From the NCBI GenBank assembly GCA_046581755.1, contig JAYGFR010000153.1, positions 1 through 14,395 of the forward strand: 14,395 nucleotides of DNA, read 5' to 3'. Source of the DNA: Nitrospinota bacterium. GTDB lineage: Bacteria > UBA8248. A program made the position numbers. Of the stretch, positions 1-3,000 are shown piece by piece. Each line of letters opens with the position of its first letter. Positions within the stretch are counted from its first letter, which is position 1.

Positions 1-3000
1 CTCGAGGAAGGCGACTGGGGAGGCCAGGACGATGAGGGGCTCCTCGTTGCCATCCGCGCCGCCTCGGTGGATCGGCCCTATTTGCTCGAGATCAAGACGC
101 CCGAGTCCTCGAAGCGGGCCACCGCCGCATCGGTGAAGTACAAGAAGTACGGTGGGAAATAATTTCCCGCCTATTTTAAGAGAGTGAGCCTATGACGACA
201 TTGGACCAGCGCCATCCGGTGGATCTGACTCTGGACAAAACCGCCCGGGAACTCCGGATTGAATGGGTGGACGGGAGCAAGAGCCGGTACGGGTTCGATT
301 ATCTGGCGGCGATGTGCCCTTGCGCGAACTGCCGCGAGAAGCGGATCGAGATGGCGAAAAACCCGCTTCATGTGGTGTCCGGCCCCCTGGGGCCGGCCGA
401 GGTGGGAAACGCCTCGATGGTGGGGCGCTATGCGTTGAGCATCACCTGGCAGGCGGGGTGCGTCTCGGGAATCTATTCGTTCGATTATCTCCGCTCCATC
501 GATCCCGCGAACGCGGAAAAGGATGAGGCTGGAGAAGCCGGTTCCCGGGAGGAGGGATGAACACCCGCTTGCGGGAAGAAGTGGAAACCTCCGGGAACGG
601 CAATACCGGAAACCGCCCGGAGCCCGTCCGGGATGAAGAGGAGTTTTGCCCAACCTGACTGAGCGGGGTTCTTTTCTTCTTGGTCAGGAAGGGATACCGC
701 TGGATCGCCAAAAAATTCTCAAGGGCCTAGCCTGAAACGCCTGTTCCCCCGGCCGGAAATGGCCGGGGGCTTTTTGTTGTGTTCGAACCGGATCCTTCAT
801 TTTAAAGGAGCCCCCCCTCATGGACAAAGTCACCCTTCAGCCGTCCTCGCTCCGCGTGCCCTCGCTCCCCTACGTTCCGGGAACGAAGCGGGGGCCCTTC
901 GTATTCACCGCCGGCCAGGTGGGAGTGGACGGCGGGGGTAACCTCGTCGGCGAGGGGGACGTTGGGGCCCAGACCCGTCAGGTGCTCAAAAATCTCGCGG
1001 CCGTCCTTGAGGAGGGCGGCGCTTCCGCCGCCGATGTCATGAAAACGACAGTGTACCTTGCGGATATCGGCGATTTTGCGGCGATGAACGAGGCTTATGC
1101 CGAATTTTTCGGAGATGCCAAACCCGCGCGGACGACGGTTCAGGCGGCGCTCGCTTCGCCGAAATTTCTGGTGGAGATTGAGGCGGTGGCCGTGATCGAA
1201 GGGTAATGAGCGGCGGGTTGGCCGGGGCGTCATTCCAGTGTGATTTTTTGCACCCAGCTTCGGCCCTGGTAGCGCGCCTCGATTTTCATGTCACGAAGGA
1301 TGGTGAAGAAGATTCGGAGCCGGACGAGGTCCTCTCCGCTGAAGCGGATGGCGCCGCCGGGGCCGACCGGATATTTCTTGGACGAGCGGTTGCGGAGAAA
1401 TGTGACGCGAATCGTCCCGCCCGGCGGAACGGCTCCGCCCTTGCCGCAGGATTTTCTCCGCACGGTTTTCCAGGGACCCTTGATTTTCCGGCCCGTCGGG
1501 CGGCGGCCGGTCACGCTACGTCCTCTGCAGTTGGACAAATCGTTGCCGGGGCTGCCGGTGATCAAGTAGCCTATCTCGGCGAATTTCGTGATTCCGCAGC
1601 CGATACCCTGTGTTGCGGCGATGGCGCCCGATTGCGTGCTCACCTCGACTTCCCTGAAAGTCCGCCGCTCCTGCACCGGGCAAAGGGCCACCTTCCGGAG
1701 AAGGGCGAGGCCCCCTCCCTTTCCGTCGAGGCGGTAGCCTTCGATGTCCGGTCCCAGGGTCCGGCTGTCCACCCGGATGACACCGCCCTTGACGGTTTTC
1801 ACTGAGCCGCAGCCCGCGGACAGGGCCAGCAGGGCCAGCGCGGACAAAAAACAGGGCGCGGCCAGTTTGTGGCCGCAGAATAATATCTCTCTCATGGAGC
1901 CTTGAATTCCCGTTGCGGCGGAAAAGAGGATGACGCAGCTTTTGGGGGTATCCTAATCTTCATCCGGCGGCGAGAGCAACGCCCGGCCGCCGGCTGGCGC
2001 TCCCCGATGGAGCGCAACCGGGCCGATCTGGTGTATAAGGGCTTATTCCCGTACGGTATTCCTGTTCACCGAAGGAGGACATCTCTTGGGCCAGACCATC
2101 GCCGAAAAAATCCTCTCCGCCCGCGCCGGAGCCGCCGCCCGGGCCGGCGATCTTGTCGTCGCTGATATCGACTACGTGATGGCGGGGGACGCCAAGGGCC
2201 CCAAGGCGCTCGACATTTTCCGGGAGGCGGGCCTCCCGTTCCGCCTCGATCCGAATAAGACCGACATCATCATCGACCATTTCGTTCCGGCGTTCGACCT
2301 CCGCTGGGCGGAGCAACACGTCAGGCTCCGTGAGTTCGCCGCCGAGCGCGGGGTGAACCTCTTCGACGCGGGATCGGGGGTGTGCCACACCATCGTGACC
2401 GAAGAGGGCCGGGTGGGCCCGGGCGATCTGGCCGTGGGCGGGGACAGCCACGTATGCACCTACGGAGCCCTGAACGCCATGGGCGTCGCCGTCGAGAGCG
2501 GAGAGATCGCCTCGGTATTCGCCACCGGCAAGCTCTGGTTCAAGGTCCCCCGTACCGTACGGGTCGATTTCGAGGGCAGCTTGCCGGAGGGCGTATTCTC
2601 CAAGGACATGGCCCTCCACCTGGCCGGTGAAATGGGGTTGAACGGGGCCAACTACCGGGCAGTCGAATACGGCGGACCGGCGCTTTCGGCCCTTTCGATG
2701 GAGAGCCGCTTCACCATCGCCAACATGGCGGTGGACATGGGGGCGAAGACGGGGCTCATGGAGGCCGACGAGAAAACGGCGGCCTGGACGCGCGAGGCGG
2801 GCCGCGCGGGTGAGCCGGTCGCGCCGGACAATGACGCCGAATACGAACGCGAAATCGTCCTGGACGTCTCCTCGATGGAGCCGGCCATCTCCGCCCCGCC
2901 CTCGGCGGACAATGTATTTCCGGTGGGGAAATATGCCGGGCTCCCGGTTCACCAGGCCTATGTGGGTACCTGCACGAACGGCCGCCTCGAGGACATCGAG

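Follow-up and report, generated by a model that had tools for sequence, protein, structure and literature searches.

A predicted micro-selenoprotein with a CxxU motif, apparently uncatalogued, encoded behind DsbA-like and DUF971 genes in Nitrospinota

Introduction

Thiol oxidoreductases carry a CxxC-type motif at the N-terminus of a helix. Among the bacterial selenoproteins whose selenocysteine (Sec) is inserted by way of SelB and a SECIS element, CxxU motifs are found in AhpD/CMD-like, SELENOW-like, GrdA and DUF1858 proteins (PMC13188914, Table 1), and the consensus bacterial SECIS is described as a stem whose loop starts with G(G/U) at 20-26 nt from the UGA (PMC13188914, section 5). The small protein described here shares with these selenoproteins an in-frame UGA, a SECIS-type hairpin behind it, a CxxU motif at a predicted helix start and a genome with the Sec machinery. 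However, it differs from them in having neither a globular domain (46-71 aa with a single predicted helix) nor a Pfam or NCBIfam match, and no Cys form of it was found in the searches reported below.

KCU-star genes have an accessory role and stand next to a larger partner gene. KCU-star/DUF466 (NF033934), dual-CXXC (NF041197) and UXX-star (NF041114, NF041211) are, like the gene studied here, very short and easily missed Sec genes, but their motifs are CU, RxU, UxxT and GxGU (PMC13188914, Table 1), and the present family gave no NCBIfam match. Catalogues of selenoproteins depend in large part on homology to families already known (PMC13326102); a gene for 46-71 residues is invisible to them because they rely on homology and no Cys homolog is found. 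A UBA8248 genome appears in Table 2 of BSepDB with 54 selenoprotein genes, and of the ten genomes listed there as richest in selenoproteins, three belong to the lineage (PMC13326102).

Two described systems involve DsbA-family proteins. DsbA-like selenoprotein form 2 (PF01323, DxxUP; compare PDB 7DK9) is similar to the gene upstream, which likewise belongs to PF01323 and has its Sec at U-P, but with CxxUP instead of DxxUP in 13 of 13 aligned copies. In FrnE of Deinococcus (DR_0659), the C-terminal CxxxxC tail contacts the active site of another molecule, and a role in regeneration was proposed (PMC8945050, section 2.4). This tail is also a short, flexible, dithiol-type segment that goes with a cytoplasmic DsbA-family enzyme, and it is used here as a 'works like' model only: in our case the segment would be encoded by a gene of its own and have Sec and a helix of membrane type, and the likeness is one of proposed action, not of established sequence kinship. 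As for DUF971, its genes were reported to be co-fit with Mrp, BolA and YggX and to matter under cobalt or paraquat (bioRxiv 10.1101/072470), and the domain has been linked to Fe-S upkeep and to cobalt/paraquat sensitivity (bioRxiv 10.1101/072470; PMC12041740; PMC7980591).

Here, we analysed a window of 14,395 nt, which covers positions 1-14395 of contig JAYGFR010000153.1 from a Nitrospinota bacterium of UBA8248, in which a genome survey had reported a new tiny CxxU selenoprotein behind a DUF971 gene.

Results

A short reading frame with CPT-TGA overlaps the end of a DUF971 gene

The small gene lies at 557-730 on the + strand and encodes 57 aa if its TGA is read, namely an arm (residues 1-30), C-P-T-U (31-34) and a hydrophobic, then basic, helix (35-57). 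As the survey's finding had it, an ATG at 557, the C-P-T codons followed by TGA and a TAG stop at 728-730 can all be read in the sequence; the CxxU motif occupies 647-658 (+), with its TGA (656-658) as the predicted Sec codon. The ATG shares bases with the stop codon of the DUF971 gene (ATGA, 557-560), which agrees with the reported position right behind that gene, and a purine-rich stretch that would bind the ribosome spans, together with this ATG, 547-559 (+). Among the 33 genomic copies described below, GGAG, GAGG or AGGA was found 5' of the chosen start in 30, and the start lies -4 to +12 relative to the DUF971 stop in 31. In genus g8 the start codon is ATG, GTG or TTG, all at the same +3 position.

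The products of the family are 46-71 aa long. Their N-terminal arm varies from 13 to 39 residues and is barely conserved save for the three residues that adjoin the TGA. The motif itself is near-invariant (C 32/33, P 31/33, T 32/33 and U 33/33), the exceptions being one W-P-T-U (in G027, with no partner Cys), one C-S-T-U and one C-H-F-U. The survey had reported CPTU-LSG as conserved; the C-P-T-U part stands, but L-S-G is not kept, and the first residue after CPTU is V in 18, L in 6, P in 4 and A in 3 of the 33 copies. A single residue beyond the Sec is invariant, a Val whose codon supplies the GU of the SECIS loop. In addition, an intrinsic-terminator-like hairpin with a T run follows the small gene at 746-779 (+; 10 bp, 9 of them GC). 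A terminator-like element was present at most 110 nt downstream in 9/33 copies, five of them at the spacing seen in the window, and such a hairpin follows the small gene in g1 and g2.

The family occurs in six genera of one phylum

A single-sequence search of 61 genomes matched all four other genomes of the same genus (E 4.5e-14 to 1e-6, one TGA each), and a reading of five weak matches (E 8e-4 to 0.025) established them as true members. Two further weak TGA-bearing matches, in G035 and G031, were chance upon reading. The survey had named E values of about 1e-3 outside the genus as a weakness; a profile built from 21 sequences removed it, matching 33 of 51 phylum genomes at E <= 2.5e-9 (21 of these 33 positives are in the profile), with the next match at 3.5e-4. 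Each of the 33 genomes had one strong match with exactly one TGA, always at the DsbA-like/DUF971 locus, and the positives belong to six genera of two families. The copies come from kin and are not independent, and all counts are given as conservation and not as a statistical test.

When the DNA 3' of DUF971 was read at 42 loci, the small ORF was found at 33 (g1, 5/5; g2, one; g5, one; g9, 4/4; g8, 21/23; and one genome of the second family). Eight loci had no small ORF with both the DsbA-like and the DUF971 gene kept (g4, 0/4; g7, 0/2; and two of g8), and at the remaining one the contig stops 77 bases past DUF971. In two further families, eight genomes have the DsbA-like gene with neither DUF971 nor the small ORF beside it, DUF971 sits elsewhere in family f4, where the small gene was not found, and neither the DsbA-like nor the DUF971 partner was found in G006. 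The small gene is dispensable, since at least eight genomes keep both partners without it. It may be a later addition to the DsbA-like and DUF971 pair, a suggestion made without a tree, because the outgroup locus L127 (labelled Tectomicrobia) has both of these genes and the small gene was not found there.

Metagenomic loci were picked by a pattern for the upstream DsbA-like gene; 20 were taken and 19 read. Eleven of them have an intact small ORF with TGA, three lack it after DUF971, three lack DUF971, one is truncated and one (L107) is decayed, with TGA changed to TAA and the Cys and the frame lost too. The labels of records with the cluster are Nitrospinota, Nitrospinaceae or Tectomicrobia. 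In samples from outside the phylum, the profile matched 0/4 outgroup genomes, 0/17 and 0/301, and a match in one of 201 genomes was read as chance (the large searches scored the top candidates per genome). A DNA pattern for CPT-TGA, which fits the g8 spacing only, had 98 matches across genome contigs, of which 13 were family members (at least 58 bits) and 85 were others (at most 21 bits); among the latter, a run of similar Chloroflexota matches was taken as the reverse strand of another gene, the strand being assumed. A back-translated single-protein scan of genome contigs confirmed nothing.

The UGA is very probably read as selenocysteine

The source genome contains tRNA-Sec, selA, selB and a selD that has one TGA of its own, and selA is present in 49 of the 51 phylum genomes. 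At the motif codon, TGA was found in 33/33 genomic copies and in 11/11 intact metagenomic copies, and never a Cys codon, while the true stop of the ORF differs between copies (TAG, TGA or TAA). In all complete copies the frame stays open for 21-34 codons past the TGA, and indels are whole codons. Past the TGA, frame 0 is free of stops, and in both clades its pN/pS is the lowest among the six frames (0.52 and 0.67), although purifying selection on the tail is modest (0.44-0.67, uncorrected). The C-P-T before the UGA had no amino-acid change in 18 g8 copies, the W and the basic residues past the hairpin are kept (pN/pS 0.44-0.54), and the SECIS codons of g8 have a pN/pS of 0.86. Synonymous divergence in g8 has a pS of 0.17 in codons +1 to +12 versus 0.54 upstream and 0.29 downstream, and this drop after the TGA fits what an RNA element would cause.

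A predicted bacterial SECIS lies at 662-701 (+), with a lower stem (662-666/697-701), an upper stem (673-681/686-694) and a GGUC loop (682-685) that begins 23 nt after the UGA. The hairpin after the TGA folds at -18.5 kcal/mol (z -2.6), and 4/200 shuffles were equally good. The survey had claimed a conserved downstream hairpin. Indeed, 32/33 copies can form a stem of at least 4 bp with a G(G/U) loop starting 20-26 nt past the UGA, a count whose shared loop-position anchor was picked after the alignment was seen; in the window, however, this is not the most stable fold, and the GGUC-loop register lies 3.8 kcal higher than the minimum-energy fold, the loop of which does not obey the G rule. A comparable test with the loop at 20-26 nt was passed by 25/300 ordinary TGA stops, a loose hairpin test by 104/300, and a stricter one by 21/33 copies versus 58/250 background stops. 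Covariation is slight, with two-sided change in 2 of 11 predicted pairs (10 sequences).

Other ways of decoding the gene were rejected. Reassignment of TGA to Trp is contradicted by 1114 stop-to-stop frames of at least 350 codons that end in TGA and by the presence of tRNA-Sec, and a readthrough fusion to DUF971 by frames that differ among genera and by a DUF971 stop that is TAG or TAA in several. A Cys homolog is what usually confirms a Sec assignment; the survey had found none, and we found none in a profile search of 1.84 billion representatives (34-position profile, limited reach), by genome search or among longer proteins (the latter a weak test). The profile search gave six matches, one family member with TGA rendered as W and five repeat proteins, and the search of longer proteins gave three near-identical matches of 889-890 aa (E 0.017, 19% of the query), which were taken as chance with their sequences unread. 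The sole full-length database relative has W at the Sec position, and a contig with TGA there gives the identical letters when translated under table 4. Metatranscriptome contigs from three of four runs (three studies) cover the TGA without differences at a depth of 2.4-3.6, and one of them spans the end of DUF971 and the small gene (452-733); DNA carry-over is possible, and this coverage is no more than a hint of expression. Taken together, the UGA is very probably read as Sec through SelB/SECIS-dependent insertion. The claim of a new tiny CxxU selenoprotein is supported by the sel machinery, the fixed TGA, the frame, the hairpin and the lack of a family match, and stays a prediction from sequence.

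The cluster begins with a DsbA-like selenoprotein gene

The order of DUF971 and the small gene is kept as the survey had described it, but the cluster consists of three genes, not two; wherever the locus is complete, the order is DsbA-like Sec gene, DUF971, small gene. The first of these, a DsbA-like selenoprotein gene with CYVU-P, had been overlooked. In the window, it is interrupted by the contig start, and its 3' end (the last 53 codons and the stop; PF01323) occupies 1-162 (+). This piece shares 79% identity with the G001 protein over residues 165-217 of the latter, and the gene is whole in L103, which is 98.9% identical to window positions 1-1753. The gene matched PF01323 with E 3e-17, and the closest solved structure of its product is 7DK9 (E 2e-20). 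Its relatives carry their own in-frame TGA in C-Y-V-U-P-Y-A near the N-terminus; U-P-Y-A replaces CxxC, with neither the second Cys of CxxC nor a C-terminal dithiol tail, and two other Cys (C8 and C74) are invariant. The DsbA-like gene was found in 50 of 51 phylum genomes, 17 of these 50 without a detected small gene. A terminator-like hairpin lies over its stop codon at 151-171 (+; three sites found, 1.6 ± 1.4 in shuffles).

The DUF971/GBBH-like_N gene (192-560, +; PF06155, E 3.3e-19) encodes 122 aa with a CxCxxC motif, which may be a metal binder and whose C42, C44 and C47 are invariant across nine aligned homologs. A second DUF971 gene of the source genome precedes a Rieske ferredoxin and has no small-gene neighbour. 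Downstream of the small gene, a RidA/YjgF-family gene (820-1206, +; PF01042, E 7e-36) adjoins in genus g1; it is not a constant part of the cluster, and the downstream gene differs among genera.

The product is predicted to be a single helix and matches no known family

In the AlphaFold2 model of the 33-residue core, a single helix begins at the Pro of CPTU and takes up all of the rest (pLDDT 80-89 in the helix core and 57 before it; mean pLDDT 75.5, pTM 0.34); because the model helix starts at this Pro, the CxxU would lie at a helix N-terminus. Both the model and the composition of the tail agree with the hydrophobic, then basic, helix that had been reported. The net charge of the tail is +3 to +7 in complete copies, and 32/33 copies have no acidic residue in it. 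The best 19-residue Kyte-Doolittle mean is 0.86-1.47, with a hydrophobic moment of 0.19-0.51; the usual threshold for a spanning helix is 1.6. The tail seems too polar for a confident spanning helix, which favours a surface helix. Its hydrophobic stretch is C-terminal, and no signal peptide was evident by inspection. The simplest reading of the model would be a cytoplasmic protein with a basic amphipathic helix at the membrane surface.

No Pfam family matched the small protein at E <= 0.01, and two matches of other members (E about 0.05) were regarded as chance. NCBIfam 20.0 gave no HMM match for 21 core sequences at E <= 5, and PDB sequences gave no family (best match E 1.3), which bears out the survey on the absence of a known family. 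The AhpD/CMD-like and thioredoxin-fold CxxU selenoproteins are globular, and the model of the small protein is one helix. In a protein collection, the product of the window is cut at the TGA (33 aa) and that of a relative is listed at 40 aa, both named hypothetical. None of the 119 prokaryotic selenoprotein families and subfamilies in Table 1 of PMC13188914 is alike when compared by domain or description. In the literature we found no description that links a selenoprotein with DUF971, CPTU with selenocysteine or the lineage with the domain; the comparison did not extend to every selenoprotein family list. This is a real family of predicted micro-selenoproteins, apparently uncatalogued and narrow in range, with a function that is predicted only.

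Discussion

For the function of the small protein we tentatively prefer a redox role that seems to us quite possible, if not quite probable: a CxxU helix on the cytoplasmic membrane surface would recycle the DsbA-like selenoenzyme in Fe-S or redox upkeep. The 57-residue Sec protein would sit on the inner membrane face through its one basic amphipathic helix, and the CxxU at the start of this helix would act on the neighbouring enzyme. In a selenenylsulfide/dithiol cycle it would hand electrons to the DsbA-like active site, as the FrnE tail may do between molecules, and the small protein would be a resolving arm encoded as a separate gene, with DUF971 as client or co-worker. This fits a DsbA-like neighbour that has Sec at the attacking position and neither the resolving Cys of CxxC nor a dithiol tail, and a small gene placed behind the DsbA-like and DUF971 genes at every complete locus that has it. 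The Fe-S side of the proposal draws on the co-fitness and cobalt/paraquat data for DUF971 and on the second DUF971 gene next to a Rieske ferredoxin. On the other hand, the DsbA-like gene occurs in 50/51 genomes and the small gene in 33; eight genomes have DsbA-like and DUF971 genes without it and eight more the DsbA-like gene alone, C8 and C74 could resolve the DsbA-like protein unaided, and the G027 copy (W-P-T-U) has no partner Cys. The fuller form of this proposal is somewhat doubtful, in which a minimal, fold-less selenoprotein without a Cys counterpart uses its CxxU as a detachable resolving arm, in a Sec-to-Sec relay that serves Fe-S maintenance through DUF971.

The link to DUF971 could also be read as a sign that the CxxU works with the CxCxxC of DUF971 to ligate or pass on a metal (Fe, Zn or a toxic soft one) or an Fe-S cluster, with no recycling of the DsbA-like enzyme. 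Translational coupling (start at -4 to +12 of the DUF971 stop in 31/33), the finding of the small gene only where DUF971 follows the DsbA-like gene (it was not found in f4, with DUF971 elsewhere), and the ties of DUF971 to Fe-S upkeep and cobalt tolerance, with a CxCxxC that may bind metals, speak for such a role; we nevertheless think it unlikely, as each chain offers two ligands only, one copy has no Cys, eight genomes keep DsbA-DUF971 without the small gene, and the second DUF971 gene has no such neighbour. The persistence of both neighbours without the small gene would instead suit a stand-alone membrane selenoprotein (a redox peptide that faces lipid peroxides or quinones, a store of selenium or a membrane-protein adaptor) whose gene order reflects co-regulation. 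That the basic amphipathic helix is the conserved part, and that few lineages are richer in selenoproteins than this one (PMC13326102, Table 2), are consistent with this, but the gene was never found off the cluster, with one strong match per genome and always at that locus, and we regard the idea as improbable.

Two further explanations were weighed. Stalling or release at the UGA might gauge selenium, setting how stable the transcript of a Sec-dependent operon is or how far it is read through, so that translation would matter more than the product. Sec is never replaced by Cys and the whole gene is lost instead, the sole invariant residue past the Sec is the Val that supplies the GU of the loop, the g8 SECIS codons have a pN/pS of 0.86, and a terminator-like hairpin follows in g1 and g2. 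However, the small gene is the last in its cluster and no leader, the gene that follows it is not constant, 9/33 copies only have a detected terminator, and C-P-T (without amino-acid change among 18 copies of g8) is conserved, as are the W and the basic residues past the hairpin; such a gauge is quite improbable. Alternatively, the UGA might be a true stop that ends a peptide of about 33 residues at C-P-T, the conservation downstream being that of a non-coding hairpin. Databases do hold products of 33 and 40 aa, no Cys homolog was found in our searches, and the hairpin test is loose enough for 104/300 ordinary stops to pass. Nevertheless, ordinary stops are free to change, as the true stop of this ORF does among TAG, TGA and TAA, and yet the codon is TGA in 33/33 copies; the frame runs on for 21-34 codons in all complete copies with whole-codon indels, and the upstream arm shows hardly any conservation outside the three residues beside the TGA. 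A true stop is very improbable.

If the fuller form of the proposal, the Sec-to-Sec relay, is true, the family would represent a new class of Sec microproteins, one that catalogues based on homology cannot see. The family does not extend beyond one small uncultured phylum and is dispensable there, and its function is a guess. In any case, the small gene illustrates what homology-based selenoprotein searches miss, and its product would be the simplest possible CxxU scaffold, short enough for synthesis and assay. Furthermore, two Sec genes are tied here to DUF971, a domain of unknown biochemistry, and this gives a concrete test of its role in Fe-S upkeep. A rough genome scan also returned many further UGA genes that resemble AhpD, peroxiredoxin and UGSC types by eye and have similar loops.

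Variant copies of the predicted small selenoprotein gene and loci lacking it

At locus L107, the copy of the small gene 3' of the DUF971 gene has decayed: its TGA has become TAA, the Cys is gone and the frame is shifted by one base, with no Cys replacement. A second variant (G027:C10:145510-145608, L046) reads W-P-T-U and has lost the partner Cys; Sec and a strong hairpin with the predicted SECIS loop GGUC are retained. At G011:C1:301252-301448 (L139), a broken tandem duplicate of the DUF971 gene and the small gene's tail are joined. The two genomes of the genus g8 that lack the small gene after DUF971 are G015 and G028; its place is occupied by another ORF, which may resemble a restriction-modification methyltransferase. 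Genome G000 also carries a second DUF971 gene; at G000:C297:191-861 (L131) it stands immediately before a gene for a Rieske [2Fe-2S] ferredoxin (PF00355, E 7e-24), and this locus has no small selenoprotein gene.

The upstream DsbA-like gene

The DsbA-like gene of the cluster (window 1-162; complete in L103, a near-identical record) is predicted to encode a selenoprotein too, with the motif CxxUP. The gene was present in 50 of the 51 phylum genomes, and all complete copies (49/49) had a TGA within the matched region. Catalogued form 2 of the DsbA-like selenoproteins carries DxxUP, whereas the protein of this cluster carries CxxUP instead. A terminator-like hairpin within the cluster (window 151-171) spans the DsbA-like stop codon and could damp the genes downstream. 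At least five genomes of family f4 (L080-L083, L086) share a short hydrophobic ORF of ~35 aa that starts with MD(M/L)DFLF and lies a few hundred bases 3' of the DsbA-like gene.

Other UGA genes and neighbours

A rough genome-wide scan of G000 returned many more UGA genes, several of them multicopy; by eye, these resemble AhpD/CMD, UGSC, peroxiredoxin, DUF3179 and UXX-star selenoproteins. A Cys-rich ORF of 221 aa on the minus strand (window 1233-1895), which has a lipoprotein-like start and no match in a Pfam search, is kept close to the cluster in several relatives.
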